A DNA stretch of 64,000 bases from Candidatus Altimarinota bacterium (GTDB lineage: Bacteria; Patescibacteriota; Gracilibacteria; UBA4473), in assembly GCA_965231215.1 (NCBI GenBank), contig OZ246423.1, positions 64,001 through 128,000 on the forward strand, given 5' to 3'. The notes below the pieces were generated by a model, which was not told the DNA's origin, searched no databases, and saw only the letters and a list, made by a program, of their open reading frames with translations. Positions 8,477 to 41,176 of this stretch are shown one piece after another. Positions within the stretch are counted from its first letter, which is position 1, and the number at the start of each line of letters is the position of its first letter. The position numbers were made by a program, and so were the translations under genes.

Positions 8477-11400
8477 TTATTTTGGTGCAGCAGCACCATC
8501 ATTTCCATCATTTCCATCTCCATCATTTCCATCTTTATTATGAACTAGCACTCCATCAGCATAAAAAGTATGGTATTGAGACACTTTACTAAGATTATAC
8601 GTTTGAACTTCACCTTCAACGTAGTCAACAGATTTGAGTTCTACCGATCCTTCTAAGAGTTGAATTACATCCCCAATCTCTAGCATAGCCACGCCGAGTT
8701 GATGATCTTCCTCTGTTTTTTGTGGATCAAGCGAAGCCCAAGTCTGAGTCCCATCTGCCTTAGTTACGTATACTGGATGCTCTGAAGTAACTCGTAAAAG
8801 ATCATTGTTGAATTTGTAGTATCCTTCCCTTACTGGTGTTTCAAGTTTCAAGACTTGTGCCATAACAGTTTCACCATTTTTTTCGTTATAAGCCAGAACT
8901 TCATCTCCCAATATTATGTCTTCAATCTTTTTAATACTCTGGTCTGCCATCGTAATTTTGGTTCCAGCGGGAAAACAACAAGGTTCAGGTTTTGGACGTT
9001 TACGTGGTGTACACGGTTCACGAGTATCCTCTGCAGGTCCAAGAGGCTTTCCATTTTTGAACTTTCTTTCCCACCAAGTTTTTGTTCGTCTACTACAAAA
9101 CCTTGCATATTTAATTTTATCATCTTTTTTTTCTTTAGGCTTACTAGGCTTACTAGTTTTCTTGGGACATTCGACACCAGTACTAATCCATTTCCCCCAT
9201 GATCCCCAAGTACCTTTGCGAGTTTTACAACGAGTTCTTTTGCACCAGAAACCATTTCTACAAACTCGTTGTGTTTGACAAACTCGACCTTTTCTCCGAA
9301 CTTCTTTAGTTTTTGGTTTTTTAGAAGTTTTTGGTTTTTTAGAAACTCTTTTAACGACTTCTACTCTTGATTTTTTAGAAACTCTTTTAACGACTCTTGG
9401 TTTTCTGGGTTTTACTGGTTTTGGACTAGAGTATGGCGCTCCGTATTTTTCAAGGGGGATAACAATAAGGTTTCCTTCACATCCATTATCCATTTGAGCA
9501 ACCAACATAGTCACTCCATTTCTTCGTGAAATAGTCACGTTTTTAAGGGTAAAGTCTCCAGCTGTTTCCAAACTCATATCATTCCATCTATCTCCTTTCC
9601 CCGTTAAAACATGAAGCCGTTTTCCAGCAATACTACCGTATTCTTTTCCCCCGATCGTAATTGCACCATTTTTAAGCCATTCTCCAACACTTGCTGTCGT
9701 TCCTCGGTTCATATCTCTTTCTAGACCAGCTTTAGAGTTCGGGCCTTGTAGCGATTGAGCGGCTCCAAGAAGCCCTCGTTCAACAAAGTAACTTCTGGTA
9801 TCTCTTCCTTTGGCTTGAGCAATAGCTTTCTTAACCACTACATTATTGTTTAATTGTTCCATTATTTTTACCATGAGCGCTTGAGCTTCTGGCGTAGCCC
9901 CTATTCCCATTTTTTCTACTCGATATACAAGATATTGAGCGACTCGATTACGCCCATCAAGGCCACCAGCTTGATCAAGTCTTGTCATAGCTGCTAGACC
10001 ATCAATGTCTTTAACTCCTGCGGTCGTAATAAGGCTATCAATTTTAGCTTTAGTAGCCGCTGGAATATTTTCACTACTTCGGGCAATAACCACTTCTGTT
10101 TCATATTTTTCTAGAATTTTGGCTAATCTTCCATCTTTTCCAGCGGTCTTGATAGCCTCACGAGTTTTCGGCCCAATTTTGGCGTCTACACCTCCCGTAT
10201 CAAGACCTTCTTTATTAAGTTCTTTTTGTACAAATTTAATAAATTCTGTACGTTTTGGTCCTCGCATAAGACTGACCCTGCTTTTAAAATCAGCAAGCGT
10301 TACATCTCCGTATTCAATTTTTTCAGTGGTTGGAGCGACCGTATCTACTTGATCTTTAGTCGTAGGAGTAGTAGTATCTACTGGATTGACTTTAGTAGTG
10401 TCATTTCCAAGTTTCTCAGTAATCCTTTGGATAGCGGCTTCTACAGCTGCACGGGTTTTTTTGCCAACTTTACCATCGATATCATCGGCCTCATTCCCAG
10501 AATCACTTAGTTTAAATCCTTGTTCTCGGAGCCATCTTTGAGCTTCTTTCACAGAACCTTCTGTTGGAAGCTCTTTAATGCCTTTTAGTTCTTCTAGTTT
10601 TTCTTTTAGTTTTTCTTTTGGAGTATTCTTGAGATATTCATCAAAATTCCCTCCTGTACTTACTACTTCAGAAGCCACTGCACCAGAACCTTCTAAGGTT
10701 TTAATAGCGGCTTCAAGTTGAGTAATCCATTCAAAGTTATAATACTCTACTTCAGGGAAATCTTTTTGTTTATCAGCGCTTAGACTATTATATCCCTCTT
10801 GATAAGCTTCAAGAGCTGCTTTAAGTTCCGCTACATCGGCACTTACTACCTTAACATTTTCTTCGTTAATTATATTTTGAATAACCACACGCTTCTTTGC
10901 GTCTACTCTTGTATATTTTTTCAAAAGTTCTTGTGAGAGGTCAATAAGTTTATTCTCAATATTTTTAATATTTTTAACATTTTTTATAATTTCATCCGAT
11001 TCATAGGCATCAATTTTTTCTTTTAGTGGTAGCAGTTCCGTTAGTACAGAAAAAGAATCAAGCTGAGAATCCTTAAATTCTCCATTAGCCAAATTAAAAG
11101 CCACAATCGCATTATAAGCCTCTTGATAAAGAAACTTAGCTGTTTTAATATTGTCTTTATGAATTTTTTCCAAAAATTTATCTTGAGTAGCTTTTATTTG
11201 TTTTTCAGCCTCTCCTCTCAAGGTTTGAAGTTCTTCAAGCTTTTCTTTTGGAATTTCTGATCTATCTCTACTATCACTCGGAGTTGCCTCTTTAAATTCT
11301 GATGCCTTGGCAGAGATAGAAAAAATACTTTTTCTCTCTTCTGCAAACTTAGCTTCTTCGTGAAGTTTTTCAGTTTCTAGTTGTAGAAAGGTCTGTAGTT

Positions 11401-11716
11401 CTTTAAGGTTCTTAAATCCTAATGCTTCAAATTCTTTTCGAGTTAGTAACACGTCTTGATCTGGCATCCAGGAACGATCAAAGCTAATTTTGATATTAGA
11501 AGTCCCTGATTCACGAGAAACAGTCACACCAGAATTTCCAGACCAATCATCTACATCTAAATTTTTAAGGTCTACTAGTTCTCTAATCCGATCTAATAAA
11601 TTATTCCGAGCTTCTTGACCCCCTGGAGTTACTTCTTGGCCAGATTCATGACCTGAGTCTAGAGTTTTGAAAATAAATTTAGTACCCTCGAAATCGGCAT
11701 TGCATAGAAATTTCAT
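8477..11716 (-). CDS. Large protein with two peptidoglycan-binding repeats, a cationic Cys/Trp-rich region and a C-terminal Hint (intein-like) domain
   Basis: VKEAQRWL..IDGKVGKKTRAA and IKFVQKEL..VDAKIGPKTREA; CFPAGTKI..TSEHP..TYNL..ADGVLVHN. Confidence 0.85.
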   Translation of the reverse strand: MKFLCNADFEGTKFIFKTLDSGHESGQEVTPGGQEARNNLLDRIRELVDLKNLDVDDWSGNSGVTVSRESGTSNIKISFDRSWMPDQDVLLTRKEFEALGFKNLKELQTFLQLETEKLHEEAKFAEERKSIFSISAKASEFKEATPSDSRDRSEIPKEKLEELQTLRGEAEKQIKATQDKFLEKIHKDNIKTAKFLYQEAYNAIVAFNLANGEFKDSQLDSFSVLTELLPLKEKIDAYESDEIIKNVKNIKNIENKLIDLSQELLKKYTRVDAKKRVVIQNIINEENVKVVSADVAELKAALEAYQEGYNSLSADKQKDFPEVEYYNFEWITQLEAAIKTLEGSGAVASEVVSTGGNFDEYLKNTPKEKLKEKLEELKGIKELPTEGSVKEAQRWLREQGFKLSDSGNEADDIDGKVGKKTRAAVEAAIQRITEKLGNDTTKVNPVDTTTPTTKDQVDTVAPTTEKIEYGDVTLADFKSRVSLMRGPKRTEFIKFVQKELNKEGLDTGGVDAKIGPKTREAIKTAGKDGRLAKILEKYETEVVIARSSENIPAATKAKIDSLITTAGVKDIDGLAAMTRLDQAGGLDGRNRVAQYLVYRVEKMGIGATPEAQALMVKIMEQLNNNVVVKKAIAQAKGRDTRSYFVERGLLGAAQSLQGPNSKAGLERDMNRGTTASVGEWLKNGAITIGGKEYGSIAGKRLHVLTGKGDRWNDMSLETAGDFTLKNVTISRRNGVTMLVAQMDNGCEGNLIVIPLEKYGAPYSSPKPVKPRKPRVVKRVSKKSRVEVVKRVSKKPKTSKKPKTKEVRRKGRVCQTQRVCRNGFWCKRTRCKTRKGTWGSWGKWISTGVECPKKTSKPSKPKEKKDDKIKYARFCSRRTKTWWERKFKNGKPLGPAEDTREPCTPRKRPKPEPCCFPAGTKITMADQSIKKIEDIILGDEVLAYNEKNGETVMAQVLKLETPVREGYYKFNNDLLRVTSEHPVYVTKADGTQTWASLDPQKTEEDHQLGVAMLEIGDVIQLLEGSVELKSVDYVEGEVQTYNLSKVSQYHTFYADGVLVHNKDGNDGDGNDGNDGAAAPK
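9310..9400 (-). repeat. Short tandem duplications encoding VVKRVSKK x2 and SKKPKT x2
   Basis: ttttttagaaactcttttaacgact repeated; ttttggttttttagaa repeated. Confidence 0.8.
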
Positions 11717-11894: not shown

Positions 11895-12428
11895 CTACGG
11901 CACAATATTCAACCACACAAAGTCAGTCCAATCACCTCCTGAAACCCCCTCTGAACCAGTCGCACAATTCATAGAAGTCACATTTTTGGCCTGATTTATA
12001 GCTCCCTGTGTACCATCAAAAATAAATCCAGCTCCCCCAGTTCCCGTATCATTTTCTTTCTTCGTAATAATAATAAATTCTTCGTTATTAGCCACTCTTG
12101 CCTGATATCCATAAAGGTAACAGTGCCCATCAGTAAATTCTGGAAGATTATAATCTTGGTTATCCATCCGAGACTTAAAATCACTTACCGTTACCAGATC
12201 CAGGGCTCCAAAAATTCCATCCCCATCTAAATCAGCAAAGTTAACCTGGTCTGAGATAAATTCATCAGATTTAATAATAATAGTCGCATTCCTAATGACA
12301 CTCAACCGAGAAGCATCATTAGCACTAAAAACATGGTTATGAAACGTAGCTACCCCCATTGATGAAAGGATTCCCGTAATCACAATGGTCACCAGCAACT
12401 CTACAAGTGTAAATCCCCTTTTAATCAT
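11895..12428 (-). CDS. Type IV pilin-like protein
   Basis: Prepilin cleavage motif KRG/FTLVELLVTIVITGIL; start placed at MIKRG. Confidence 0.88.
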   Translation of the reverse strand: MIKRGFTLVELLVTIVITGILSSMGVATFHNHVFSANDASRLSVIRNATIIIKSDEFISDQVNFADLDGDGIFGALDLVTVSDFKSRMDNQDYNLPEFTDGHCYLYGYQARVANNEEFIIITKKENDTGTGGAGFIFDGTQGAINQAKNVTSMNCATGSEGVSGGDWTDFVWLNIVP

Positions 12429-12467
12429 TACGCAGATTTTACACACATATTAACATAAAACAAGTTC

Positions 12468-12502
12468 AAAAAAAAAGCGGCTCCCAAAAGGAAACCGCTT
12501 TT
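12468..12502 (-). terminator. Intrinsic terminator between the two pilin genes
   Basis: AAAAGCGG...CCGCTTTT hairpin with a T-run on the minus strand. Confidence 0.7.
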
Positions 12503-12524
12503 AGATTTAAACAATAATTTTAAA

Positions 12525-13052
12525 TTATTCGTTCAAAATTTGAATATCATAGGTAGCTACAGAGTTAATAGTTCCTGAACCAGCTGTACTTTCTGTAACG
12601 TTAACAATACCGCCTGTTCCATCACATAGAGTATCAGCCGTGATATCAGCCACAGCTCCGGCTGTACCATCAACAATGGGTGTTCCGCTGTTTTCTTCAC
12701 TACAAGTAAAGAAAGCAAACTGGTCAGCACCGTTGTTTACGTAAACGTAAGTGTACCCAGTAGTACTAGCCGCCGGCACAGAGTATCCTCCTTCGCTGAA
12801 GAGAGTCCCTTCAACCGATCCAGCGGTAGTCGTGTCTCCTTCGGCAATATCGAAGCTAGTAATAGTATTAACTGCACGGGCAGTTTTAAGAAGCGTAGCC
12901 ATGTTTCGAATGGCAGCTTGTCGTTCTGAATCACGAGCTTTCTTGAAGTAACCAGAGAAAGTCGCAACAGAGATAGTTGCTAGGATACCGATGATCACGA
13001 TAACCACGAGCAACTCAATAAGGGTGAATCCTTTTTTTGCTTGTGTTTGCAT
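12525..13052 (-). CDS. Type IV pilin, probably the major pilin
   Basis: KKG/FTLIELLVVIVIIGILA, KARDSER; has its own terminator. Confidence 0.9.
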   Translation of the reverse strand: MQTQAKKGFTLIELLVVIVIIGILATISVATFSGYFKKARDSERQAAIRNMATLLKTARAVNTITSFDIAEGDTTTAGSVEGTLFSEGGYSVPAASTTGYTYVYVNNGADQFAFFTCSEENSGTPIVDGTAGAVADITADTLCDGTGGIVNVTESTAGSGTINSVATYDIQILNE

Positions 13053-17515: not shown

Positions 17516-18808
17516 ATGAGTCTCAATTTCAACTTCGGTCTCAAAGGAAAAAATGACGATAGTACTGTCGCCCAAGACGACGGCGCAACTCCCGTAACAG
17601 ATCCTGTAGTAGATCCTAATGCTGGTACTGATCCAGCCGGAGGACAACCTGTAGGAGATGATATTACTATTAATGTAACAGACGCCCCAAGTTTAAGCGA
17701 TGACTCTAGTATTCAAATTACTTCAGAAGAACCAGTTCAAGCTCCAGTAGTGCAAGAAGCTCCGGTAGCTCCAGTGGCCCCCGTAGCAGATCCTTTTGCG
17801 ACTCCTACTGCCACAGAAGCTACTACCGTAGCAATCGAACCAAGTCTAACAACTCCAGAAACAGCAGCGGCTCCTGTAGCTGACCCCTTTGCTGCGCCTG
17901 CTCCAGTTACACAAGAAGCCGCACCAAATCCTTTTGAAGCTCCTCAACCCGTTGCCCCTGCCGCTGAAATAGCTCCGGTTGAAAATCCTTTTGCTACTGA
18001 AACTCCCGCTGAAACCGCCGCTCCAGCATCTATAGCTGAAGCCCCTATCCCTGAGGCAACAGCGCCAGTAGAAGCGGCACCAGTAGCTGAGGCTGCCGGC
18101 ACAGAAAATACTAACGCTGATTTTAGTTTTAATCCTTTTGGTGACACTCCACCAGCCGCTGAAGAAACCTCCACCCTAGTGGAGCCTGTGGCTGAAGCCC
18201 CTGTGGTTGAAGCTGTCGCTGAAACTCCGGCTCCAGTTGAAGAAACCGTTACTCCAGTTGCTGAAGAATCTACAGGGTTCGGAGACCTCCTTGCCGATTC
18301 TACTCCTGAAGCAGCCGCAGGTACTGCCGCTGCCACTAGTACACAAGATGACGCCGTAGTTGCTGATGATACAACCGTTAATAATGAGGTAGCTGTAAAT
18401 CCATTCGAAGATAATAATACTTCAACGGTACAATCAGACGACAACTTTGCAGAGGAAGATTACGATGAAGATTACAGTGAGGAAGAGTATGAAGAGGTAG
18501 ATCCTTTAAATTCTCTTACAAGTATTAAGTCTGAGATTGAAATGTTTGTAGAAATGCACACTCAAAACATTAAGGACTACGAATCTCAAATTGAAGTACT
18601 AAAAGCCAACATCAAATCTGAGAAAGAACTTCTAAAAGGAAAAAAAGCTGAATTTAGAGATATGCTTCACGAAATTGAAGGTCTAACTGGAGATTTTGAA
18701 GATTCCTCTGAAAAACCAAAAAAGAAACGAAGACGGAAATCTAAATCTAAATCCCACACAGACGCTCCAGCCGAAACCTCAAATTATGAGGAGGAAGCTG
18801 AAGCCTAA
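17516..18808 (+). CDS. Acidic Pro/Ala/Glu-rich disordered protein with NPF/DPF repeats and a C-terminal coiled coil
   Basis: Low-complexity composition; DPF x2 and NPF x4; heptad-like C-terminus. Confidence 0.75.
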   Translation: MSLNFNFGLKGKNDDSTVAQDDGATPVTDPVVDPNAGTDPAGGQPVGDDITINVTDAPSLSDDSSIQITSEEPVQAPVVQEAPVAPVAPVADPFATPTATEATTVAIEPSLTTPETAAAPVADPFAAPAPVTQEAAPNPFEAPQPVAPAAEIAPVENPFATETPAETAAPASIAEAPIPEATAPVEAAPVAEAAGTENTNADFSFNPFGDTPPAAEETSTLVEPVAEAPVVEAVAETPAPVEETVTPVAEESTGFGDLLADSTPEAAAGTAAATSTQDDAVVADDTTVNNEVAVNPFEDNNTSTVQSDDNFAEEDYDEDYSEEEYEEVDPLNSLTSIKSEIEMFVEMHTQNIKDYESQIEVLKANIKSEKELLKGKKAEFRDMLHEIEGLTGDFEDSSEKPKKKRRRKSKSKSHTDAPAETSNYEEEAEA

Positions 18809-19547: not shown

Positions 19548-20390
19548 CTAAGCTATAGATTGTCCCAAAATAGCCGCAGCACGTTTGTAATCGGCCATTT
19601 TCAAATGAACCCCATCACTACGGTTGCGCATACCTTGGTATGGATTCACAAATTGAATACCCGATTCTTGAGCCAGAGCTGCATACTGTTGATTAAGCGC
19701 ATTAACCGCTCCCTGCTTCCCTCCTTTAACCATAGGCGGAACCGCTACAAGTGTGATTTGAACCCCATTAGATTTTGCAATTTCAATAGCTCTCTTGGCA
19801 TGAGCCACTGCCTGGCTCGCTCCATCAGCCATAATATTGTTAGTTCCAAAACACCAGAAACAGTGTCCAGGTAGGTTTCCAGAGCGTGCATCTTGCTCTA
19901 ACTGAGCAAGCCCAAATGAGCTCGTCGCCCCATTTTTGGCTGATGATGATTGCTCCCCCAATCCGCGAGCATGAGAATCTCCATAAATCCTCGCCTCGCT
20001 TAATTTTGCTCTAGCTTTTTTCTCCTCAGGACCATTCATTTTTGGGATATTTTTACCTGAAACCGTTTTATCTTTTGTATTTTTAACACTTGGTCCAGCA
20101 TTTGTAGTATTGCCTAAAGCGGTAGAGGTATTTGAGTCTGAATTAGCCTTTCTACCAGTAAGCATAGCCATAAGATTTCTTAGCATTTCCCCTAAACTTC
20201 CTAAACTTGACCCAAGCCCTTCAAACTCTTTTCCCGCCTCTCCCTTTAAAGCTTCTCTTATAACTGGCGCTTTTCCAGAGCGAACAAGCCTCCTCCCTAG
20301 CGTATGTATTTTAGTGGGAGAAATCTCATCTCCAGTGGGGATTAGGGAGTCTATAGTACTTTTAAAATCTGGGTTTTGACGGAGAGCCAT
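19548..20390 (-). CDS. Protein with a C-terminal SGNH/GDSL hydrolase domain
   Basis: IYGDSH (block I), GTNN (block III), DGVH (block V); no signal peptide. Confidence 0.8.
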   Translation of the reverse strand: MALRQNPDFKSTIDSLIPTGDEISPTKIHTLGRRLVRSGKAPVIREALKGEAGKEFEGLGSSLGSLGEMLRNLMAMLTGRKANSDSNTSTALGNTTNAGPSVKNTKDKTVSGKNIPKMNGPEEKKARAKLSEARIYGDSHARGLGEQSSSAKNGATSSFGLAQLEQDARSGNLPGHCFWCFGTNNIMADGASQAVAHAKRAIEIAKSNGVQITLVAVPPMVKGGKQGAVNALNQQYAALAQESGIQFVNPYQGMRNRSDGVHLKMADYKRAAAILGQSIA

Positions 20391-20402: not shown

Positions 20403-20675
20403 TTAAGAAAAAATTTGCTTTACTCTTTCTAAAGCGTTTGGTTTTTTAGATTTTCTTTTGAGCAAAGAAGCTATCTGAGTTTCCTGACGCTGAAAAGTTT
20501 CTAAAAAATCAGGGAAAATCTTTTTAGTAAAGGCTTTAACTGGGCCTTTAGCAATGGGTAAACGGTCAAATATTTGAGGAAGTTTAACACTCCCTGCATT
20601 AAAAAAATTTTCCCAAGGATTTTGAGTCACTTTAGTAAATTTTTTTGGAATACTTAAAAATTGTTCTTTAACCAT
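20403..20675 (-). CDS. Hypothetical protein
   Basis: 90-aa ORF tightly packed in an operon with its neighbours. Confidence 0.55.
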   Translation of the reverse strand: MVKEQFLSIPKKFTKVTQNPWENFFNAGSVKLPQIFDRLPIAKGPVKAFTKKIFPDFLETFQRQETQIASLLKRKSKKPNALERVKQIFS

Positions 20676-20677: not shown

Positions 20678-20992
20678 CTAAAGGGTAGATAACATATCAT
20701 CAAGTTCTTGTTCTGCACTGGATATTTCCTTAATACGGATTTTTTCTTCCTCTTCTACAATCCGTTTAAGGGCTTCGTGAATAGCCATATTTTCTAAGTC
20801 GGCAAAAAAGTGAGGGTTTTTCTCTAAGATTTTCCTAAAAAGATCCGTTTGTTTTTCATCCATTTGCCGCAAAATAGGCAAAATTTCAGCCTGAGTTTGG
20901 TTGTCGGCTTCCATTACCTGGATTTTAATATCCTTCGCCAGAAACAAGTTTCTGGACAGTAGCTCTTCGATTTCGTTAATAATTTCACTCAT
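20678..20992 (-). CDS. Small acidic helical protein (effector-partner family)
   Basis: Paralog of 22627-22950: ELLSRNL/ELLNRNL, DEKQT/DQKQT, NPHFFADLE/DPYFFHKLE, AEQELDDML/AEKELENDL. Confidence 0.75.
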   Translation of the reverse strand: MSEIINEIEELLSRNLFLAKDIKIQVMEADNQTQAEILPILRQMDEKQTDLFRKILEKNPHFFADLENMAIHEALKRIVEEEEKIRIKEISSAEQELDDMLSTL

Positions 20993-21112: not shown

Positions 21113-22540
21113 ATGACTAAAGAAAAAAGAAATCAACCTAAAGCTGCTCCTGCAAAAAAACCTTCAAAAAAGGTAGGTGTAAAAAAAGAAGTAGCCAGAG
21201 CCGCTAAAGGCCCGGCTAGAGGAAAACTAAGGAGAATAGTTCGAATGAATCCAGATGAAAAAAAGTTAGCTGGAACCCTTAGCCTAAAACTTAAGAAAGG
21301 TAAGAGAGAAGGCAAACCTTTAGTGCTAGCCCAAGCTCGAACAGGCAAAAAAGACGTCGTAGAAAGAACAGAGAAAGCTAAAGTTGAAAAACCTTTAAGC
21401 GCTGAAAAAGCTACTTCTGTTTTTAGAGAGCCAGAAAGTAAAATTGTTACTAACCCCGACATAGAGGAAGCGGTAGTAAAAAGTTTTAAAGAAGATTCTT
21501 TTGAAACTAAGGGGCTTACTGAAGCTGAAATTAAAAGCGAAGTTGAAGACCGGGTTATCAGAGCCAAAGCCGAACAAATAGGTGAAAGAGTTCTTATCCC
21601 TGGTAAAGAAGGCAAACCAGGCATGACTGAAGGTCAATACATTGAAAAACTAGCAAAAGACCATGATATAGACCCAAATACACTGCTTATTGCTCGAGCA
21701 AAAAACCAAGCAGGAATAGGCGCAGAAGTAGACAAAGAAAATACTATCACAGACCCTGAAGCTTACAAACAATCGCTTGAAACCTTTGCTCAAAATTTCA
21801 AAAAAGCGCAAGACTATATTGCTGCTAATAAAGACCTAATAGCCCAAAACCCAGATATTCAGGCTAGAGCTATGGCTATATTACAAGGCAAAGACCCAAA
21901 TGATCTATCACCAGAAGCTCAAGCAAAACTAAGAACCCAAATCGCAACAGACGAAAGACTTGGAGAACAGTTTTCTACTCTCAATCGAATGACCACTGGA
22001 AATACTTCTTCACTCAATAATATCGGAAGTGGGATTGGAACTGTATCTCTAGATCCAGCTGATCTAAACGCTACTCCCCCACTTGATCAAAAAAAATACG
22101 CCCCTGGTAGCGCTGAAGCTCAACAGCTTTTTGCCAAAGCTGCAAGAGACAACGGCATGCCAGAAGAATGGGGCAAATCACCAGGACTTCATTCTGTACT
22201 GGGAAAAGAATCAGGGGGAATTGTCGGAAGACTCAACTATACATTCAAAGCTGTAGCTAAAAGAATGGGAACTTCAGTTGACGATCCTAAATTTGTAGGT
22301 TGGGTACACGGAAAACTACGATCTGGAGCCTCTGCTAAAGATTTCGGAATCCGTTCAACCGCTACAGGACTAGGACAACTGCTTATTGGGAACGTAAAAA
22401 AACACTACCCAGGTGGGATCAGCGAAATTGGGAAACCCGAAGGTGAGGCAGCAGGAATGCTGGCTTACATGAAGTCCCGTTATGGCACTCCTGACAATGC
22501 GGCTGCCAAGTATGGAAAAATGGGGCACGAAGGGTACTAA
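21113..22540 (+). CDS. Effector-family protein with a C-terminal lytic transglycosylase (SLT-like) domain
   Basis: KESGG (catalytic Glu), TATGLGQL, AGMLAYMKSRYG..GY; shared IDP core. Confidence 0.8.
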   Translation: MTKEKRNQPKAAPAKKPSKKVGVKKEVARAAKGPARGKLRRIVRMNPDEKKLAGTLSLKLKKGKREGKPLVLAQARTGKKDVVERTEKAKVEKPLSAEKATSVFREPESKIVTNPDIEEAVVKSFKEDSFETKGLTEAEIKSEVEDRVIRAKAEQIGERVLIPGKEGKPGMTEGQYIEKLAKDHDIDPNTLLIARAKNQAGIGAEVDKENTITDPEAYKQSLETFAQNFKKAQDYIAANKDLIAQNPDIQARAMAILQGKDPNDLSPEAQAKLRTQIATDERLGEQFSTLNRMTTGNTSSLNNIGSGIGTVSLDPADLNATPPLDQKKYAPGSAEAQQLFAKAARDNGMPEEWGKSPGLHSVLGKESGGIVGRLNYTFKAVAKRMGTSVDDPKFVGWVHGKLRSGASAKDFGIRSTATGLGQLLIGNVKKHYPGGISEIGKPEGEAAGMLAYMKSRYGTPDNAAAKYGKMGHEGY

Positions 22541-22626: not shown

Positions 22627-22950
22627 ATGGACGCCCTTAAACAGGAAATTTTGGAACTTTTGAACCGAAATCTGGTAATTAGCCCAGAGGTAAGAGAGGA
22701 ACTAGTACAAAATCTAGAAAGCCTTTCTGAACCAAAAATTAAAAAAATTTTGGTAATTCTACGTGACGCAGATCAAAAACAAACCCAAGCTCTAGAAGAA
22801 ATCTTAAAAGAAGACCCCTATTTCTTCCACAAGCTAGAACATGTAATTCTAGAAACAATGGAAGATGAATTTGAAAAACAAGAAATTATTGAACACGAAG
22901 TGGCAGAAAAAGAATTAGAAAATGACCTAGCTAACTTTTCAAAAAAATAA
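22627..22950 (+). CDS. Small acidic helical protein (effector-partner family)
   Basis: Paralog of 20678-20992; first gene of the hydrolase operon. Confidence 0.75.
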   Translation: MDALKQEILELLNRNLVISPEVREELVQNLESLSEPKIKKILVILRDADQKQTQALEEILKEDPYFFHKLEHVILETMEDEFEKQEIIEHEVAEKELENDLANFSKK

Positions 22951-22960: not shown

Positions 22961-24001
22961 ATGAAATTTCATTTAAACCGGCTATCGGAGATTGATCCCC
23001 AATTCTGCTATAAATTCAATGAAAAAGCTCCTCATCCTGGAACACGAAGAGAGAATAACGAAAAAAATGAGAATAGAGCTAAAAAGGTCAAGTCTGATCC
23101 AGAGTCACCAGAAAACATTGGAAAAAAATTAGACCAAATTGGGCACTCTACAAACGATATGCCAGATTTTGTAAAAGGGCCAGCAAAACAAAAACTACAA
23201 AAAACTGTATGCCAAGCATGTAAAGGAAAGATAGATTCTGGTAGTTTAGATAAAGCAATTCATGAAATAGCAACAGATGGAAGCCCAACTGAACAACCTG
23301 GGCAAAGTAAAGAAGGACAAGAAAAACCTCCAGAAGCATTAAGTAAAGCTCAAAAAGAAGAAATCAAAAAATATTTAGAAGCAAAACTAAAAGAGGTCGA
23401 AAACTTAAAAAAGAAGTACGAACAATATAGAACTAAAGGAGAGATCGACAAAAATGATCCAGGTGAAATAGAGATGGAAAAACGCTTCCAAAAAGCAAAG
23501 ACTTCTTTTAATAGTGCATTAAGTGATGTTAATAATTTTCCAGAAAAAGAGGGAGCAGAAAGCAACTCAAATCAAAGTGATGCAGTAGCAACTGGAAAAG
23601 AAGCTCTAGGAAAAAAAGAAGGAGCTGAAGTTGATGCATGGCTTAGATCAAAAGGTGTTGAATGGAATAGTGCAAAAGATCCTTGGTGTGCTGTTTTTAT
23701 ATCAGCCTCAACAGGTACAGATGTAACTAACGGAGTTCAAGCTGGAGCATTAAATCTACCAAAAGCTGCCGGAGGGAAAGAGATTGCTATGTCTGAAGTA
23801 AAAGGCAAAGCAACCTTAAGTGGGAATAGCTCAAATACAGTTAGATCTGGACGTGTAGAAGGCTTCACAAAAGCTTATGAATTAAAAGATGGAACTAAAG
23901 TAGTAACTAAAGAAAGAGGTGATCCTGGAAGTGGAAAAGGACATATAGAAATGGTAGATGAAGGTGGTGAGGCAGGTGAAGCTACTACTAGCATGGCCTA
24001 A
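22961..24001 (+). CDS. Effector-family protein with an atypical CHAP/TIGR02594-like domain
   Basis: DPWCAVFIS, LSGNSSNTV, GKGHIEMV. Confidence 0.65.
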   Translation: MKFHLNRLSEIDPQFCYKFNEKAPHPGTRRENNEKNENRAKKVKSDPESPENIGKKLDQIGHSTNDMPDFVKGPAKQKLQKTVCQACKGKIDSGSLDKAIHEIATDGSPTEQPGQSKEGQEKPPEALSKAQKEEIKKYLEAKLKEVENLKKKYEQYRTKGEIDKNDPGEIEMEKRFQKAKTSFNSALSDVNNFPEKEGAESNSNQSDAVATGKEALGKKEGAEVDAWLRSKGVEWNSAKDPWCAVFISASTGTDVTNGVQAGALNLPKAAGGKEIAMSEVKGKATLSGNSSNTVRSGRVEGFTKAYELKDGTKVVTKERGDPGSGKGHIEMVDEGGEAGEATTSMA

Positions 24002-24009: not shown

Positions 24010-25545
24010 ATGTCAGAAACACCAAAAGGGTATGAAAGAAGTAAAGTTCACGGTGATATCACCGCAGGACTAGAACAGCTAAACGGTGACTACCTCAAAA
24101 ACGAGATGAAATGGGGACGTCTTTCTGGTTCTGAATACGCCCAACATCACGGGATTGAAGTAAAAGAAAAACTACCTCAAGCCACCTTTGATAAAGTCTG
24201 GAACAAACGAATAAACAGCCAACCTACGGCTAAAAAAGATATTGCTGACTTCAATGGTTTTTATATTAATCCAGAATTCAAAAAAGAAATCTGGAATCGA
24301 ATTGAACATACCTTTGATAGTCAAAAATTTCTTTTGGATCAGGCTTTTGCCTCTGAAAATGCAGACTTTGAAAAAACCCTCAAAGACCTCAAAGAACAAC
24401 TTCAAAAAGAAAACAAATCTCCAAAAGAAATTACTGGATCTCTCAATGCCAAAAGAGAAGATCTCATTGCCCAAAAACAGAAAACTCCGGAAGAAAGACA
24501 AGCGTTAATAGATCAAAAATTCCCAGGGAAAAAAGCTCAAGAATCAGTAGAAAAAGAAGTGCTTAGACGAATTGAAGAACACGCTAAAAGACTCAAACTT
24601 GATAGTCTTCATGACAGCAATAACTTAGGATTAAAAGGCAAAGAGGGCGGAGAGCTTAGTGAAGCTGACTATCTAGATGCCATCGCTAAAGATAAAAAAA
24701 TTGATCCTGATGTGCTTTTGGCCGCCAGAACTATGAATCTAGGAGGCTTTGGATTGGATCAAGATTTAGGAAAATTCAAAAACGCAGAAGCATACAAAAA
24801 ACACGTAGAAGAATTTGTGAACCGAATGGAAGAAGCCAAAAAGCTAAAATCGACAGACCCAGCTCAGCTTCTAGAGTTCCTCAAAACTGGTAAAAAACCA
24901 TCTACTACTACCAATAATACCGAAGCAGCGCCCCAAAGACGACAAATCAATACTCTCTGGGACCTTATTAAACTCCTCTTAGAATTTATTAGCGGAGGCG
25001 AGGAAGGAAACTTTGATTTCTTAGGTAACAATAACGGAAGTGACTATGTCAACGGAATTAACTACAACCAAACGCCTAAAAATGCCGATGGACGAGCTAC
25101 TCCAGAATTTGCCAGAAAAGCTGCAGAAAAAGCCTCAGGAAAAGGACAAGCTATACTCAACACCGCTCTAGGAGAGCTAAATACCCATGAAGTTCGAAAT
25201 AGTGGCAGAGTAAGAGAATATCATAAATCTGTATTCGCTAGAGGGGCTTCACCAACGGGTACCCCTTGGTGTGGCTCTTTTGTAAGTTGGGTACTACAAA
25301 AAAATGGAGTTAACGCCAAAACGGCTTCATCTAGAGCTTTTTTAGGCATGGGACAAGCCGTTTCCTCTTCTCAAGCTCAACCAGGAGATATCGTAGTTGT
25401 AGCTAGAGGTGGTGGTGGTCATGTTGGATTTTTTATTGGGTGGGATCCAAAAGGAAAACCTATTATTGTAGGAGGAAACCAAGGCAATAAAGTTTCTATC
25501 AAAACCGAACGGCGAACCTTACTTGGGATAAGACGAATCGGATAA
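24010..25545 (+). CDS. Effector-family protein with a C-terminal CHAP/TIGR02594-like cysteine amidase/peptidase
   Basis: TPWCGSFVSWVL, QPGDIVVV, GGHVGFF, GGNQGNKV. Confidence 0.85.
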   Translation: MSETPKGYERSKVHGDITAGLEQLNGDYLKNEMKWGRLSGSEYAQHHGIEVKEKLPQATFDKVWNKRINSQPTAKKDIADFNGFYINPEFKKEIWNRIEHTFDSQKFLLDQAFASENADFEKTLKDLKEQLQKENKSPKEITGSLNAKREDLIAQKQKTPEERQALIDQKFPGKKAQESVEKEVLRRIEEHAKRLKLDSLHDSNNLGLKGKEGGELSEADYLDAIAKDKKIDPDVLLAARTMNLGGFGLDQDLGKFKNAEAYKKHVEEFVNRMEEAKKLKSTDPAQLLEFLKTGKKPSTTTNNTEAAPQRRQINTLWDLIKLLLEFISGGEEGNFDFLGNNNGSDYVNGINYNQTPKNADGRATPEFARKAAEKASGKGQAILNTALGELNTHEVRNSGRVREYHKSVFARGASPTGTPWCGSFVSWVLQKNGVNAKTASSRAFLGMGQAVSSSQAQPGDIVVVARGGGGHVGFFIGWDPKGKPIIVGGNQGNKVSIKTERRTLLGIRRIG

Positions 25546-25549: not shown

Positions 25550-27235
25550 ATGAAGTTTATATATCAACAGAAACTAAAAACAAACTATCGGTTTATCTAT
25601 CAAGAAAAACCGGAAGATAGCCCTGAAGAAAACAACAACAAAGAAAATCTAAATGATGTCATAGAAGACATAGAAGCTTTCTTAGCTGAAAAAACTAAGA
25701 CAAAAAAAAATACACCACTTCCAGACGAATTAGTTCAGCGATTTATAGAAGCTTCAAAAGGTTCAAAAGTGGAAGACTTAGCAAAACTTATTACTGACCC
25801 AAAAATAGGTAGAGGAAAAGAAAGAGTTGAATATGTCATTAAACGACAAAAATTTGAAGAAGCCTGGAAAAAACTTTCTGAAAAGACTGATAGTGTAAAA
25901 ATAAACCCAGAACTCAAAAACCAAGAAACCGCTCGAATTATGCATGAAGTTATAAGCGGTATTTCTTTAGATGAATTTAATGATCCTGCAAAGCTTGAAA
26001 AAGCTATAAAAAACACCATTGCCAATGAAAGGGTAAAAGAATTCAATCAAACCAGGGCCGACAACGGTGAAAAAATTAATCCTGCAACAGATATTGATGA
26101 AAATGGAAAAATTAAAACCCCAACCCTTGCTGATAAAATTGCTGAGGTAGCTAAAAAACACAAACTAGATAGTCACCTACTTGCGCGTAGTGCCGCGTTA
26201 AACTTTGATAATTTTGGTTTAGATAAAGATGGGAATATACTATCAGAACATCATGGTGAGATTTTTGAAAAAAACCTAGAATCTCTAGCTAAAAAAATTA
26301 AAGAAACAATGAAAAAAACTGACATAGACCCAAAGAAGGCAGAAGAATTAAAGAAAAAACTTGGTTCTAACCCAACTCAACAACAAATCAACAACGCTAC
26401 TGACCAAGCAGTTTCTAGCTACAGTGGTGACAAACCAAGAACTCTCTGGGATTTGATTCAGGCTTTATTAGAATTCGCTAACATGGGGATTGGTGGGCGG
26501 AATCCTAACGATAAAACTCACGGCACTGTAAATGCTGGCCCAAATAGAGTCAGGTATGACCAAGGAACAGCCAGAAATCTGGACGCAGCGTATGAAAAAC
26601 TACAAAAAATAGATCCCAAAACCAATGAGCTTAAACTCAGTGATCAGTGGAAAGAAAAGCTAACGGCTAAATTTGGTGGTCAAATTGAATCCGTCACCAA
26701 TTACCTCAAAAAATTTCCAACCAAATGGCAGGGAGCCGGAGCCGAGTTTTTATTCAAACTAGGGCGTATTCCTGCAGACAATAAAACTATTGGGATTGCC
26801 AACGTTAAAGGGGGAATGGCCTTAGCTGTATACCCAGACGGAAAAGTCCATGAATTCCCTATTATTATTGGGAAAAACGGATACTCAGATGGAGCCAGAT
26901 CCGGTGACAAAAAAAGTAATCTTAGACGTATTCAAACCATCGTAGGTGGAAAACTTGTAGGGCGAGGTCAAGATGCCAGCAAAACCGGTTCTAGAACCGT
27001 TGTTGGAGCTGCCTTATATAGCAAAGAAGAGGCTCATACTGGAAAATGGTGGCACGGAGTAGCTGATAACCGTATAGCCGGACGCCGTGGGCGAACCTGG
27101 GGATGTATTGGTGCCAAACAAGAACATATTCAAATGATGGCTCGTACCATGCTTAAAAAAGGTTCTGACGGTAAGGTTCAAGGAGGATACCTGTACCATG
27201 TAGATAGTTACGAAGGAGCCCCTAATAAAGTCTAA
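25550..27235 (+). CDS. Effector-family protein with a C-terminal YkuD-like (L,D-transpeptidase/peptidase) domain
   Basis: FPIIIGKNG..GDKK, WWHG-x12-TWGCI matching HxX(14-17)[ST]xGC. Confidence 0.75.
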   Translation: MKFIYQQKLKTNYRFIYQEKPEDSPEENNNKENLNDVIEDIEAFLAEKTKTKKNTPLPDELVQRFIEASKGSKVEDLAKLITDPKIGRGKERVEYVIKRQKFEEAWKKLSEKTDSVKINPELKNQETARIMHEVISGISLDEFNDPAKLEKAIKNTIANERVKEFNQTRADNGEKINPATDIDENGKIKTPTLADKIAEVAKKHKLDSHLLARSAALNFDNFGLDKDGNILSEHHGEIFEKNLESLAKKIKETMKKTDIDPKKAEELKKKLGSNPTQQQINNATDQAVSSYSGDKPRTLWDLIQALLEFANMGIGGRNPNDKTHGTVNAGPNRVRYDQGTARNLDAAYEKLQKIDPKTNELKLSDQWKEKLTAKFGGQIESVTNYLKKFPTKWQGAGAEFLFKLGRIPADNKTIGIANVKGGMALAVYPDGKVHEFPIIIGKNGYSDGARSGDKKSNLRRIQTIVGGKLVGRGQDASKTGSRTVVGAALYSKEEAHTGKWWHGVADNRIAGRRGRTWGCIGAKQEHIQMMARTMLKKGSDGKVQGGYLYHVDSYEGAPNKV

Positions 27236-27237: not shown

Positions 27238-28959
27238 ATGAAAAATCTAAAAAATCGATTCCAGATTCAGACAAAATTTATTTTTAAACAAAGTGCTACA
27301 GGCCCTGAAACTTCAACCGATACCCCGGAAAAAGCGAACCAAGAAGAGGCTATCCGTAGAGCCTTGGAAAAACATGCTTTAGAAAAAGATTCTGGAAAAC
27401 CTAAAATTTCTGACGAAGATATTAATGCCGGAATCGCTAAATTCATTGCCCTCTTTGAAAATGATAAAATTGATAAAATTGATGAGAAAAAAATTCCTGA
27501 ACTTATAGTAAAAGCGGTCAAAGCCAATGGGAAAGCTAGTGACGTACCGGAATTAGATACCCTTATTAAGAAGGTTATATCTATAAAAAAGCAACAAGTC
27601 TACGAGGCTAAACTCAAAGCTAAATTTGAGCACCCTAAAATGCATGTTTCTTCTGAACTCATGCAGCAAGCCCACCAGGCTGTAATAAAAGGAGATCCGG
27701 ATCTTCCACAAGCCACAATTGAGCAACTAATGGATGCTGAAGGTGACGTGGATAAAATCGATCCAAAATATAAAGACCTTAACCCCGAAGATTTCCTTAA
27801 AAATAAGGAATACATAAAACTTTTAGAGGAAAAAGTATTAGCACTAAAACTTCAAGCCCTTACTGAAAACCGAATAACACTACCAAACAAAACAGAAAAT
27901 AATGAAAAAACCGAAGCTGAAATTATCACCGGAATAGCCACAACTTTTGGCGTAGATCCAGAACTTTTGATGAACTACAGAGTGAGAAACACTGACGGAT
28001 TCGGTCTTAACTTTGAAAACGTAGAAGAGCAAGATGTAAAAAAATACATCGAAGAAATTGAGGCTGCAGCTTATAATCTCAAACAAGCCAAAGCTAAAGA
28101 AGAAAAAAAACAAACTGAACTTGAGCAGCTTATAAAAACTAAACCTAAAAATCCGACTGAAACTATTAAAAAAATAAAAGAACTCAGCAAAGATTTAAAT
28201 TTGGGAAAAGATAAAGATAAAGTAAATGATAAAAGTACCCAGATAGGCCAATCTGTGACACAAGCCAGAGAAGGATATAAAGATGAATTCTATTCACTTT
28301 ATGATTTTATAATGGATCTCTTAAATGCTGTTGGGTATCGTCCAGGCAAGGAAAAACCAAAACAAAAAGAAGGTGAAAGCAATGCTGACTATCAAAAAAG
28401 GCTTGAAGACTGGCAAAAAAAGCAAAAAACAAAACAAACTAACTACCGAAACAATTGGTCTTCTCAGCCCAATTCACCCGCTGATACTAAAGGAATTGAA
28501 GCTCCAAACGGAAGTGCCGTACAAAAGGCTATCGCTGCCGCTAATGCCGGGAATATATTAGGGGCAAAACACTGTACTGATTGGGTTTCTAAAGTATACG
28601 GTGTGAGTGTTCATAGTCTCAGAAAAGTACAATTTTCTGGCGCCACAAATAAACATGGAGACTTTGTAACCAAAGTAGGACGTGGTACAGGACTTGCTGG
28701 TAACGGTGGAGCGAGTGTAGAAGATATTAACAAAATGCCAGCAGGAACCCATATTATGATTGACCATTGTCGAGGTGGGTCTTGTGGCCAAGGAAAAACC
28801 CATAGTGCTATTCTTCTAGAACAACCTTCAAATGGAAAAGCTCGAGTGGCCAGTTATCCAGGGGGAGGAAAAAAACCAAGAATTGAAAACTACACCTTTA
28901 GCCAAAACGGATCTGGAAATTCTAAAAGAGTCATCCGAGCTCATTACCCTCCTTCCTAA
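27238..28959 (+). CDS. Effector-family protein with a C-terminal NlpC/P60- or CHAP-like domain
   Basis: KHCTDWVSKVY (Cys), PAGTHIMI, KTHSAILL (His). Confidence 0.7.
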   Translation: MKNLKNRFQIQTKFIFKQSATGPETSTDTPEKANQEEAIRRALEKHALEKDSGKPKISDEDINAGIAKFIALFENDKIDKIDEKKIPELIVKAVKANGKASDVPELDTLIKKVISIKKQQVYEAKLKAKFEHPKMHVSSELMQQAHQAVIKGDPDLPQATIEQLMDAEGDVDKIDPKYKDLNPEDFLKNKEYIKLLEEKVLALKLQALTENRITLPNKTENNEKTEAEIITGIATTFGVDPELLMNYRVRNTDGFGLNFENVEEQDVKKYIEEIEAAAYNLKQAKAKEEKKQTELEQLIKTKPKNPTETIKKIKELSKDLNLGKDKDKVNDKSTQIGQSVTQAREGYKDEFYSLYDFIMDLLNAVGYRPGKEKPKQKEGESNADYQKRLEDWQKKQKTKQTNYRNNWSSQPNSPADTKGIEAPNGSAVQKAIAAANAGNILGAKHCTDWVSKVYGVSVHSLRKVQFSGATNKHGDFVTKVGRGTGLAGNGGASVEDINKMPAGTHIMIDHCRGGSCGQGKTHSAILLEQPSNGKARVASYPGGGKKPRIENYTFSQNGSGNSKRVIRAHYPPS

Positions 28960-29264
28960 AAATTTTGACTTAAAACCTGAGCAATAATGGCTCTATCATC
29001 ATCTTCAGCCACCTTATTAGGACGCTGAAAACCACATTTTTCACATACGTGTACAATCCTGTCAGGCAACCCTGATTTTAATTCAATTCTAACAGGTCTC
29101 ATAATTCCACCGCAATTAGCCGCCCTATCCCCTGGGTTAATATCTACATGTTTAGAACACAAACACTTTATGCAGTGATTTCTGCACGTTCCCCTAGCGG
29201 GAGGGTTGTAAGTCCCGCACACCTCACAGATAAACGCGTCATTGTTATGAGTAAACTTTTTCAT
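28956..29264 (-). CDS. RNHCP-domain zinc-binding protein
   Basis: FICEVCG, RNHCIKCLCSKHVD, PGDRA..CGGIM, HVCEKCG. Confidence 0.88.
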   Translation of the reverse strand: MKKFTHNNDAFICEVCGTYNPPARGTCRNHCIKCLCSKHVDINPGDRAANCGGIMRPVRIELKSGLPDRIVHVCEKCGFQRPNKVAEDDDRAIIAQVLSQNF

Positions 29265-39010: not shown

Positions 39011-41176
39011 ATGCGAAAACAGATTTTAAACCGTTTTGGATTTGTAGTGCTTATAGGCCTCATCGCTGGAAGCTTAAGTATCCCTGCTACCTATTACGCA
39101 AAAGTTTTGGGTGAAGATCACACCATTACTCAAAAAATTGAAAGTCTCAAAGTAACCCTTGGCCTCGATCTCGCTGGAGGAACTGAACTAGACTATCGAA
39201 TTGATATGAGCGAAGCTATCGCCAAAAACAATGACGATGATGCCCTTAATGATATCGTCCTCAATGAATTAGCTGAGTCTGTGAGAGATAAAGTAGAACA
39301 AAGAGTTAACCCTGCCGGGATTGGAGAGATTATTGTAAAAAGAGCACAGGTTAATCAAGAAGAACATATCCTGGTTCAAATGCCTCCTTCTATTAATGTA
39401 GAAAAAGCCAAACGTGATGCTGAAAAAGACAATCGATTGGAATTTTTTGAAGAGAATGAAAGTGCTGTTGTGGCTAAAAGACTCGAAATTGCCGAACTTA
39501 TCACCTTTGATCTAAGCGCTGAAAAATGGGATCAGAACGCTCCAGAAGCCGCTAAGCGGTTTGAGGGAAGTTTTGAAAGTTTTGAAGCGACATTTAAAGA
39601 TGAAATGACCGATAGCGAGTTTGCCGACAAGTTATTTGCCGCAAACCAAGGTGAGGTGATTCAAGAAATTATCGAAACAACTATCCAGCCTCAATATACA
39701 CTCACCGAAGACGGAGAACTCCAATTTGATGGAGTCCCTTACCCACGGCAAGTGTTAGCGGTAGTGCGCGTAACTGACAAACAAAACGTTGAAAGAGAAA
39801 AAACTACAGAAGCAGAAGCAGAAGCGAGACATATTCTCTTCGCCTACCCTGGCGCTCTGAGAGCCGGCGAAGACCTTCCCTACGATTCAAAAGAAGCCGC
39901 TAAAGCCAAGGGAGAAGAAGTGCTAGAATCTATTAAAAATGGCGCTGACTTTGCCGAAGCTGCCAAAGACTTTTCTACTGGTCCTTCTAGTGTCAACGGA
40001 GGCGATCTTGGGGCTTTCGGTCCTGGAACTATGGCTACTAATTTTAACGATGCCGTGTTCCAATCGGAAGGTCCACAACTGATACCGGATCTCATAGAAA
40101 CCGATTTTGGATACCATATCATCGAAGTGACAAAACTTACCCAAGAAACCACCCAAACAGTTAATGAACCTAAAGTCACCTATGAAGCCGTTGTTTGGGA
40201 TACCAATGACATTGCCTGGCTCAAAACTGACCTTTCAGGAGCCCAACTTGATAATGCTCGAGTTGGATACAGCGAAGTAGGACAGCCACTTGTAGACCTC
40301 CGACTTAATGGAGAAGGCGGCCAAATCTTTGCTAAAATCACCGAAAACTTAGCCGCCCGAAACTGCCGAGGTGATGATTCTTGTAGACTCGGAATTAAAG
40401 TTGGTGGTGAATGGATCAGCCAGCCGTACGTACATGAGAAAATTACCGGAAGAAACGTCCAAATCACCGGTCAATTCACTTATGAATCAGCCAAGGCTTT
40501 AGCCAATGATCTAGAGCTTGGCGCTATTGATGCTCCTATTATCCTGAGTGGACAAGTAACCGTTCAGCCAGAACTAGGAGCTGACCAACTAGAAAAAAGT
40601 CTCAAAGCCGCTAGTTTTGGACTTATTGCTACTATCTTATTTATGATCTTGATGTACCGGTTAGCCGGATGTATTGCGGCTATTTCCCTCATCCTTTATA
40701 CCGGGATCTATATAGCCCTGCTTAAACTCTGGCCCATATCACTGGGAGGCCCCATTGTGCTGAGCCTAGCAGGAGCCGCTGGTATTGCCCTTTCTATTGG
40801 GTTGGCAGTGGATGGAAATATTCTTATTTTCGAAAGAATGAAAGAAGAAATCCGTCGAGGTCGAAAACTAGATCAAGCCATTGATCTAGGATTTGAAAGA
40901 GCCTGGAGCGCTATCCGAGACTCAAATCTTACGACCCTCATCACGTGTATTATTCTTTTCTCACTTGGAAGTTCTGTCATCAAAGGATTTGCAATTACGC
41001 TGATTGTAGGAACACTGCTTTCAATGTTTACAGCCATCAACGTTTCTCGAAATTTACTCAGAGCTTTACTACTTTTACCAGGCACAGAGAACCCCAAATT
41101 CTTTGGAGTAAAAGCCGATCATATTGGTAAAAAATCTGTTGGAGCTAAAATCCGAAAAAGAAAATCTAAATCATAA
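39011..41176 (+). CDS. secD: Protein translocase SecD with an inserted parvulin PPIase domain
   Basis: LGLDLAGG, AVDGNILIFERMKEE, AIRDSNLTT; insert ARHILF..GGDLG..FGYHII. Confidence 0.93.
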   Translation: MRKQILNRFGFVVLIGLIAGSLSIPATYYAKVLGEDHTITQKIESLKVTLGLDLAGGTELDYRIDMSEAIAKNNDDDALNDIVLNELAESVRDKVEQRVNPAGIGEIIVKRAQVNQEEHILVQMPPSINVEKAKRDAEKDNRLEFFEENESAVVAKRLEIAELITFDLSAEKWDQNAPEAAKRFEGSFESFEATFKDEMTDSEFADKLFAANQGEVIQEIIETTIQPQYTLTEDGELQFDGVPYPRQVLAVVRVTDKQNVEREKTTEAEAEARHILFAYPGALRAGEDLPYDSKEAAKAKGEEVLESIKNGADFAEAAKDFSTGPSSVNGGDLGAFGPGTMATNFNDAVFQSEGPQLIPDLIETDFGYHIIEVTKLTQETTQTVNEPKVTYEAVVWDTNDIAWLKTDLSGAQLDNARVGYSEVGQPLVDLRLNGEGGQIFAKITENLAARNCRGDDSCRLGIKVGGEWISQPYVHEKITGRNVQITGQFTYESAKALANDLELGAIDAPIILSGQVTVQPELGADQLEKSLKAASFGLIATILFMILMYRLAGCIAAISLILYTGIYIALLKLWPISLGGPIVLSLAGAAGIALSIGLAVDGNILIFERMKEEIRRGRKLDQAIDLGFERAWSAIRDSNLTTLITCIILFSLGSSVIKGFAITLIVGTLLSMFTAINVSRNLLRALLLLPGTENPKFFGVKADHIGKKSVGAKIRKRKSKS

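Follow-up and report, generated by a model that had tools for sequence, protein, structure and literature searches.

What do otherwise unrelated proteins of a Candidatus Altimarinota bacterium share at their N termini, and where might that shared start send them? The question is raised by a 64,000-nucleotide stretch of its chromosome (the window; G000:C1:64001-128000), in which a sequence-only reading had picked out a short N-terminal motif as a candidate export signal. The genome, G000, is a single contig of 1,326,059 bp (39.9% G+C, 99.3% complete) that is read well with translation table 11, 1233 greedy open reading frames (ORFs; 410,849 residues) covering 92% of it. By GyrB, its nearest relatives (63-65% identity) are metagenome-assembled genomes labelled Candidatus Peribacteria or Gracilibacteria; it differs from Ca. 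Peribacter riflensis, whose G+C content is 58.5% (PMC4736985). The window is ordinary chromosome with gyrB, sigma-70, greA, pheS, ligA and secDF, and at 19.5-29 kb it contains a cluster of highly charged proteins without signal peptides. The motif, referred to here as the tag, has the pattern M-K-x-[LIF], 8-10 variable residues, then [RKQ]-[FY]-[ILV]-[FY]-[KQ]; it spans the first 17-19 residues, and an acidic, Pro-containing disordered linker comes after it. The five strong cases that had been proposed were all confirmed and are listed here with their coding sequences (CDS) and their scores from a hidden Markov model (HMM) of the N terminus.

11666..11716, minus strand: tag MKFLCNADFEGTKFIFK of a 1079-amino-acid (aa) protein (CDS 8477-11716) with PG_binding_1 and a C-terminal Hint domain; 20.4 bits
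22961..23014, plus strand: tag MKFHLNRLSEIDPQFCYK of a 346-aa protein (CDS 22961-24001), 10 nt after a small helical gene; 24.6 bits
25550..25603, plus strand: tag MKFIYQQKLKTNYRFIYQ of a 561-aa protein (CDS 25550-27235); 29.7 bits, and E 9.4e-9 with profile A2 (see below)
27238..27288, plus strand: tag MKNLKNRFQIQTKFIFK of a 573-aa protein (CDS 27238-28959); 24.9 bits
48545..48598, plus strand: tag MKSHQHIVFAPEAKYIFK of a 553-aa protein (CDS 48545-50206) with a C-terminal glucosaminidase domain (PF01832, 4.7e-17); 24.2 bits

All five are true ORF starts, with an in-frame stop 1-8 codons before each Met. The core, [KRQ][FY][ICVL][FY][KQ], occurs 21 times in the 1233 ORFs, and eight of these occurrences fall at residues 13-15 of ORFs starting MK (0-based offsets 12-14, within a tested offset window of 11-15), where 0.195 are expected (Poisson P=4.4e-11). 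Run against the six-frame translation of G000, the HMM returned exactly the eight strict carriers, at 20.4-29.7 bits, and the next match scored 11.6 bits. A weaker case that had been proposed at 3461 scored 0.6 bits and was dropped as no member. The carriers outside the window are the following.

G000:265818, 1289269 and 1291491, minus strand: three further strict carriers, from the core search and the HMM
425304: variant KWVYQ, a loose core in a 943-aa protein
1064617, minus strand: variant KFVWK, a loose core in a 1635-aa protein
787533: variant RFAFK, a loose core in a 150-aa protein

The tag was then followed into related genomes. In the same-genus genome G004, the ortholog of the 25550 protein is 25-27% identical overall and still begins with a tag, MKKLFLYPQNSISRFVYQETGPEDK; on this comparison, the tag has outlasted divergence elsewhere in the protein. 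One carrier, of 54 aa, has been kept across genera (G000:265818 and G009). When 41 relatives were scanned with a degenerate DNA pattern and the loci read, 26 further full carriers came to light in the same family (f1), a full carrier starting no more than 18 codons from a stop in an ORF that is at least 100 aa long or open. Other families gave five in-frame matches, all of them short or internal. In all, 301 genomes of the class were searched with a profile built from 34 tags (A2). With a cut-off of E<=0.01, matches came from 28 of the 40 other f1 genomes versus 5 of 260 genomes of 35 other families; at E<=1e-3 the figures fell to 19 of 40 versus 0 of 260. The five outside matches (E 0.003-0.009) are partial, four lying in 39-67-codon frames and the fifth (G208) inside a 572-codon frame. 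Six of the 19 positive genomes (G003, G009, G136, G157, G277 and G286) had made no contribution to the profile. Twelve f1 genomes gave no match in this search, which does not tell divergence from absence. Against protein representatives, profile A2 gave five matches at E<=1e-3: three are internal repeats, and two are N-terminal, in proteins of 335 and 366 aa, lengths that equal those of two carriers already in the profile, so that nothing was gained. A homologous-protein search with the 25550 protein returned the query alone, and a related-loci search with 27238 found no relative.

Alignment of 34 tags showed no variation at M1 or K2 and a core that always begins at residue 13, 14 or 15; 31 of the tags have L, I or F as residue 4. 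The first core position is R in 15, K in 10, Q in 5, N in 2, and S and H in one each; the residue before it is T, S, K or A, not R, and Pro is the commonest residue 3-4 positions beyond the core. Core codons vary, with five codons used for Arg at the first position, five for Leu at the third, and both codons for each of F, Y, K and Q; therefore, the constraint is on the peptide and not on the DNA. The linker had been described as Pro/Glu/Gly-rich. In the 30 residues after the core, E is enriched 2.0x, P 1.4x and D 1.5x and aromatic residues are depleted, but G, at 0.83x, is not enriched. The absence of a hydrophobic h-region, also claimed, was borne out: over the first 60 aa, no 15-residue Kyte-Doolittle window exceeds 1.08 in any of the 37 carriers, and 35% of proteome proteins exceed 1.6. 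No Pfam or NCBIfam family matched residues 1-30 of any carrier scanned, and a literature search found no description of an MK...[KR]F[ILV][FY][KQ] N-terminal motif. The motif is thus real, statistically solid and lineage-restricted. On the two points that the sequence-only reading had named as decisive, no housekeeping protein is tagged, the 1233 ORFs holding only 8 strict and 3 variant carriers, and the tag is kept in orthologs and across one family.

Behind the tag, the C-terminal parts of the carriers are unrelated, comprising PG_binding_1 plus Hint, glucosaminidase and proteins with no domain, at lengths from 54 to 1635 aa. It had been suggested that most carriers have domains that act outside the cytoplasm; Pfam agrees for two of the five window carriers (PG_binding_1 with Hint; glucosaminidase) and finds no match in the other three. 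The 346-, 561- and 573-aa window proteins, together with a 732-aa protein outside the window, had no match in Pfam, NCBIfam or PDB sequences; five C-terminal parts of carriers had none in Pfam at E<=10; PDB sequence searches with four carriers gave nothing significant; and a credible Pfam domain was found in 0 of 10 carriers from relatives. An AlphaFold2 (AF2) model of the 561-aa protein, from a 2-row alignment, had a mean predicted local distance difference test score (pLDDT) of 41.9 and was unusable. As annotated here, the repertoire is a mix of cell-wall-directed enzymes and fast-evolving orphans, none of them housekeeping proteins.

In the present analysis, putative Cys/His hydrolase motifs were read in the proteins at 22961, 25550, 27238 and 1289293. 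These were not confirmed, because BLASTP of the 22961 and 27238 C termini against the CHAP protein at 24010 aligned only a PWC..F[IV]S octet, which was not significant. In the 1079-aa carrier (8477-11716, minus strand), a very basic Lys/Arg/Cys-rich stretch precedes the terminal Hint, beyond which there is only a short GND-rich tail and no toxin domain; two prepilin-like genes (11895-13052) lie immediately upstream of its gene. The KFVWK variant belongs to an operon of giant orphans (G000:C1:1054892-1069524, minus strand) that encodes proteins of 1635 aa (the variant itself, with a hydrophobic mid-region), 1267, 974 and 823 aa, the last starting MKLFPQFRNQLNQFKPLVYRD, and that ends in a 140-aa helical protein.

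A second element accompanies some of the tag genes. Two small acidic proteins are encoded in the window.

22627..22950, plus strand: acidic four-helix protein, 107 aa, candidate adaptor/chaperone, directly upstream of tag gene 22961
20678..20992, minus strand: acidic paralog, 104 aa, followed by a 90-aa ORF and by the GDSL gene 19548

The AF2 model of the small protein (pLDDT 91.3) has four helices, the last of 40 residues, and Foldseek against the PDB returned nothing at E<=0.001, only generic three-helix bundles. Members of its family were found in 22 of the 40 other f1 genomes and in 16 of the 260 other genomes of the class. When the loci were read, a co-oriented long ORF started -20 to +150 nt after 33 of 36 small helical genes, often with an overlap of 1-4 nt. 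The products of these ORFs usually start MK, have a basic residue and an aromatic/aliphatic triad at residues 10-30, and continue with a P/G/E-rich stretch; examples are TRFIFQ, SRFLFQ, GRFVWQ, SKFIFR, RFLWK and RFIYE in f1, and GRLIFR, NRLVYM, RRVFFS, RRIFFD and KRMVFN in families f10, f18, f16 and f26. A loose tag regular expression matches 16 of 33 follow-on ORFs versus 3.1% of the G000 proteome, and several others differ only at the first core residue. From coordinates, tag genes also adjoin small helical genes on G157:C8, G157:C1, G277:C9, G300:C5 and G020:C3. This conserved gene pairing of a small helical protein with tag genes in many genomes is new here. By these searches, the sharp MK...[KR]F[ILV][FY][KQ] form belongs to one family, and a looser form is class-wide and coupled to the small helical protein.

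These observations suggest how the tag might work. The reading that we favour, at about even confidence, is that the N-terminal motif is a cytoplasmically recognised, Sec-independent delivery tag that is partly adaptor-assisted. The first 17-19 residues would constitute a lineage-specific, position-fixed recognition tag that marks a fast-evolving, effector-like repertoire, which includes large orphan proteins and enzymes that bind or cleave peptidoglycan; the tagged proteins would be recognised in the cytoplasm and delivered by a Sec-independent route. In at least two effector subfamilies, the N-terminal region is probably acted on by an adaptor or chaperone, namely the 105-aa four-helix protein, which is encoded alongside and often translationally coupled. 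Judged by its sequence, the tag resembles an address for protein delivery of a kind not described so far, and a mechanism is plausible. A wider proposal is more doubtful, namely, that the tag and its four-helix partner constitute a previously unrecognised Sec-independent delivery pathway of Peribacteria/Gracilibacteria-type Candidate Phyla Radiation (CPR) bacteria, which would export a cell-wall-degrading and orphan arsenal against other cells through a type IV secretion system (T4SS) reading an N-terminal signal or through another machine.

Which machine might read such a tag was addressed by searching for the known routes. Sec type I or II signal peptides, with an h-region of ~7-15 residues after a basic n-region, were not found in the 37 carriers. 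Tat signals are likewise absent, the tags having no twin arginine and no h-region, and TatC (PF00902) had no match in G000, the control in the same search being positive in 11 of 14 genomes. For double-glycine leaders, there is no conserved GG beyond the core, and the C39 peptidase (PF03412) was not found in G000. The class III prepilin signal PF07963 occurs in no carrier, only in the neighbouring pilins at 11895-13052. No LXG or WXG Pfam match was found in carriers, and the single FtsK_SpoIIIE protein of G000 (782 aa) leaves no EssC-like candidate. The export gate of the type III secretion system (T3SS) and flagellum (PF00771, FlhA/SctV) had no match in G000, nor was there a second SecA, which SecA2-dependent autolysin export would require, PF07517 matching only at 1313595-1314761. 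What G000 does have are type IV pilus-type ATPases (five T2SSE matches), one VirB4-like ATPase of 786 aa (PF19044/PF12846) and three VirD4/TrwB-like coupling proteins (PF02534/PF10412) of 817-1019 aa with N-terminal extensions of 400-470 residues. The latter are three paralogs in a 1.3-Mb genome, at the following loci.

G000:C1:418427-428135: coupling-protein locus
G000:C1:859518-862022: coupling-protein locus
G000:C1:532884-535337: coupling-protein locus

The T4SS, with VirB4 and three coupling proteins, is the leading candidate route, weakly supported, because the search turned up no other specialised protein translocator. In G000, G024 and G022, tag genes have a type IV coupling protein (T4CP) gene 3-6 kb away. 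One coupling-protein gene of G000 is 4 kb from the variant tag gene 425304, and another is preceded by a 97-aa acidic ORF. The T4SS-like cluster itself (G000:C1:1222119-1238456) encodes the 786-aa VirB4-like ATPase, an 803-aa protein without Pfam match, a multi-span 659-aa protein that has a signal peptide, and an orphan of 1774 aa that starts MKFLPLFTHSKRTDDSARFLAFAGSGVETEGAGEE, similar to the loose tag.

Several points weigh against the delivery reading. Tag genes lie near T4CP or VirB4 genes about as often as chance predicts, with 3 within 7 kb versus an estimated ~1.3 expected (~27 tag genes, 6 genomes). Of 43 family genomes, 40 have VirB4, with no dependence on tag detection; no VirB4 was found in G007 and G020, two incomplete genomes that do have tags. 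Known T4SS substrate signals are C-terminal or internal, and therefore an N-terminal one would, to our knowledge, be unprecedented. A Pfam-supported extracytoplasmic domain is present in only two of the five window carriers, and the paralogs 21113 and 24010, encoded in the same cluster, have no tag. Most tag genes have no adjoining small helical gene, and members of the small-gene family also occur in places that lack the strict tag. For the loose regular expression, the nominal P of 5e-16 overstates the association, because the expression was written after the data had been seen and the genomes are kin. Complex prediction pairing the small protein (A5) with residues 1-60 of the 22961 protein (A6) gave an ipSAE of 0.00 in two runs, with controls not run, and speaks neither for nor against binding. 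We infer the targeting role of the tag, its binding by the small protein and the route. The original suggestion of a secretion, chaperone-binding or processing signal thus fares unevenly: the small helical gene upstream fits chaperone binding, but no secretion machine is tied to the tag.

Binding might even be all that the tag does. It could serve only as a chaperone- or inhibitor-binding or stabilising handle, by which hydrolases are held inactive or unfolded, with no role in the choice of an export route. The tight pairing of small helical and tag genes, often overlapping by 1-4 nt, agrees with this, and generic chaperone-binding peptides resemble a basic-flanked aromatic/aliphatic core. However, G000 has only 2 small helical genes for 8-11 tag genes, the fixed distance to Met1 in 34 of 34 tags would be needless for generic chaperone binding, and signal-less peptidoglycan enzymes must still exit the cell somehow. 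We regard a mere handle of this kind as unlikely.

We give similarly little credence to an inherited N-terminal beta-hairpin, in which residues 3-6 would pair with the F-I-F strand and which would act after release, in oligomerisation or in docking to the envelope or pilus. The two short hydrophobic stretches at fixed spacing (residue 4 as L, I or F; the core at 13-15) would suit such a hairpin, and the gene of the 1079-aa carrier is directly downstream of two pilin-like genes. The latter is weak evidence because pilin genes are common in these genomes. Moreover, three of the carriers, at 54, 150 and 193 aa, are tiny and contain little besides the tag, and residues 1-31 of the 561-aa protein have an AF2 pLDDT below 50, a weak argument given that the whole model is poor.

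Less probable again, the tag could be read by an AAA+ unfoldase or serve as an N-terminal degron, and so keep dangerous enzymes scarce. One class of ClpX N-terminal recognition motifs does resemble Met-basic-hydrophobic starts; yet conservation in the tag is best in the distal F-I-F core and not at the extreme N terminus, and neither the restriction to a rapidly diversifying, effector-like set nor the pairing with a small protein would be expected of a degron. A nucleotide-level or translation-initiation feature (mRNA structure, an A-rich start) is very improbable: codon 2 is AAA in 29 of 34 tags, as is common for highly translated genes, but synonymous and conservative codon changes occur throughout the core, and the amino-acid profile catches all members although their DNA differs widely.

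The delivery reading can also be set against systems that are already known. T3SS substrates offer a parallel in that the first ~20 residues matter and are followed by a disordered stretch, and small acidic chaperone genes adjoin effector genes. T3SS signals, however, have no sequence consensus, T3SS chaperones are alpha/beta dimers, and G000 has no FlhA/SctV homolog. The likeness to the Tat motif S/T-R-R-x-F-L-K is superficial, consisting of a basic residue, F-L/I and K near the N terminus (T-R-F-L-F-K); the tag has a single R/K/Q, no x spacer, no h-region and no AxA site, and TatC was not found. Like the eukaryotic RxLR and PEXEL motifs, the tag is a short linear motif at a fixed N-terminal distance that marks a large, fast-evolving, lineage-restricted effector repertoire minable by sequence. 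Those motifs, however, follow a classical signal peptide and act after entry into the endoplasmic reticulum, whereas here the organism is a bacterium and there is no signal peptide. There is also a likeness to the LXG polymorphic toxins of the type VIIb secretion system and their Lap targeting factors, as presented in the available parts of two reports (10.1101/2022.07.06.499029 / PMC9600955; 10.1101/2023.07.21.550046 / PMC10801868). There, too, a conserved N-terminal element precedes variable C-terminal enzymatic domains, some cell-wall-directed, without a Sec signal, and targeting depends on small all-helical proteins whose genes lie immediately upstream. LXG is nevertheless a helical domain of ~200 residues and the tag an 18-residue motif; the carriers have no LXG Pfam match, G000 has no EssC-like candidate and the small-protein fold has no significant PDB match. 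By analogy, the tag and its partner would fit an arrangement that works like LXG/Lap or the T3SS signal-plus-chaperone pair and that is a member of neither.

What delivery would mean for these organisms follows from work on Patescibacteria. The available part of one report (PMC12102498) describes relaxase-less T4SSs across the group whose substrates are not known, notes that in the one species tested the peptidase and lysozyme genes neighbouring the T4SS are essential, and describes no T4SS substrate signal. VirB4 and VirD4-like coupling proteins are present in G000 as in most Patescibacteria in that account; the link between tag and T4SS, however, has no support above chance here. How CPR bacteria or Patescibacteria act on their hosts, and what cargo the widespread relaxase-less T4SS carries, are open questions in the same source. 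If the delivery reading is true, a tag on 8-11 signal-less proteins per genome, several of them peptidoglycan-directed, would be a sequence handle for the effector repertoire; on the wider proposal, sequence alone could suffice to list the effectors of these uncultured bacteria. Together with its candidate adaptor, the tag would also form a defined peptide/adaptor pair that is experimentally addressable. Should the tag prove to be no more than a chaperone handle or a degron, it would remain a linear motif that is new and sharply restricted in lineage.

The remaining genes of the cluster that bear on the tag are as follows.

19548..20390, minus strand: GDSL/SGNH hydrolase, 280 aa, with degenerate tag MALRQNPDFKSTIDSLIPTGDE
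20403..20675, minus strand: basic 90-aa ORF, flanked by the small helical gene and the GDSL gene
21113..22540, plus strand: tag-less paralog, 475 aa, with a central module shared with 24010
24010..25545, plus strand: tag-less CHAP/NlpC-P60 protein, 511 aa, with a central module common to 21113, 25550 and 27238

The proteins at 19548, 21113 and 24010 had all been described as lacking the tag. This is correct for 21113 and 24010, but 19548 has a degenerate form, and its orthologs have tag-like starts in G004 (MKHLKQFSNTIPSRYCFRLPTGGE, SRYCFR) and G002 (MKFISHLAVEPKTQFLNLRQGPESG, TQFLNL). The 90-aa ORF has no Pfam match, and an 81-aa counterpart occupies the same place in G004.

Elsewhere in the window, a 430-aa protein (17516-18808, plus strand) borders the effector cluster; it is an acidic, Pro/Ala/Val/Thr/Glu low-complexity, coiled-coil protein with a Lys/Arg-rich C terminus and no Pfam match. 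On the other side of the cluster, a conserved Cys-rich, zinc-ribbon-like ORF of 102-104 aa that starts MK.FTH.N..F.C..CG (28956-29264, minus strand; also L002:560-874 and L172:1162-1476) lies between the effector cluster and a WecG-family glycosyltransferase gene in G000, G004 and G015. The gene at 39011-41176 (plus strand) encodes a 721-aa SecD with a PPIC-type peptidyl-prolyl isomerase domain fused N-terminally. In the genome as a whole, the cumulative GC skew reaches its extremes at ~20 kb and ~660 kb; a DnaA-like gene is found at 1,105,643-1,107,052, and the contig does not begin at dnaA.

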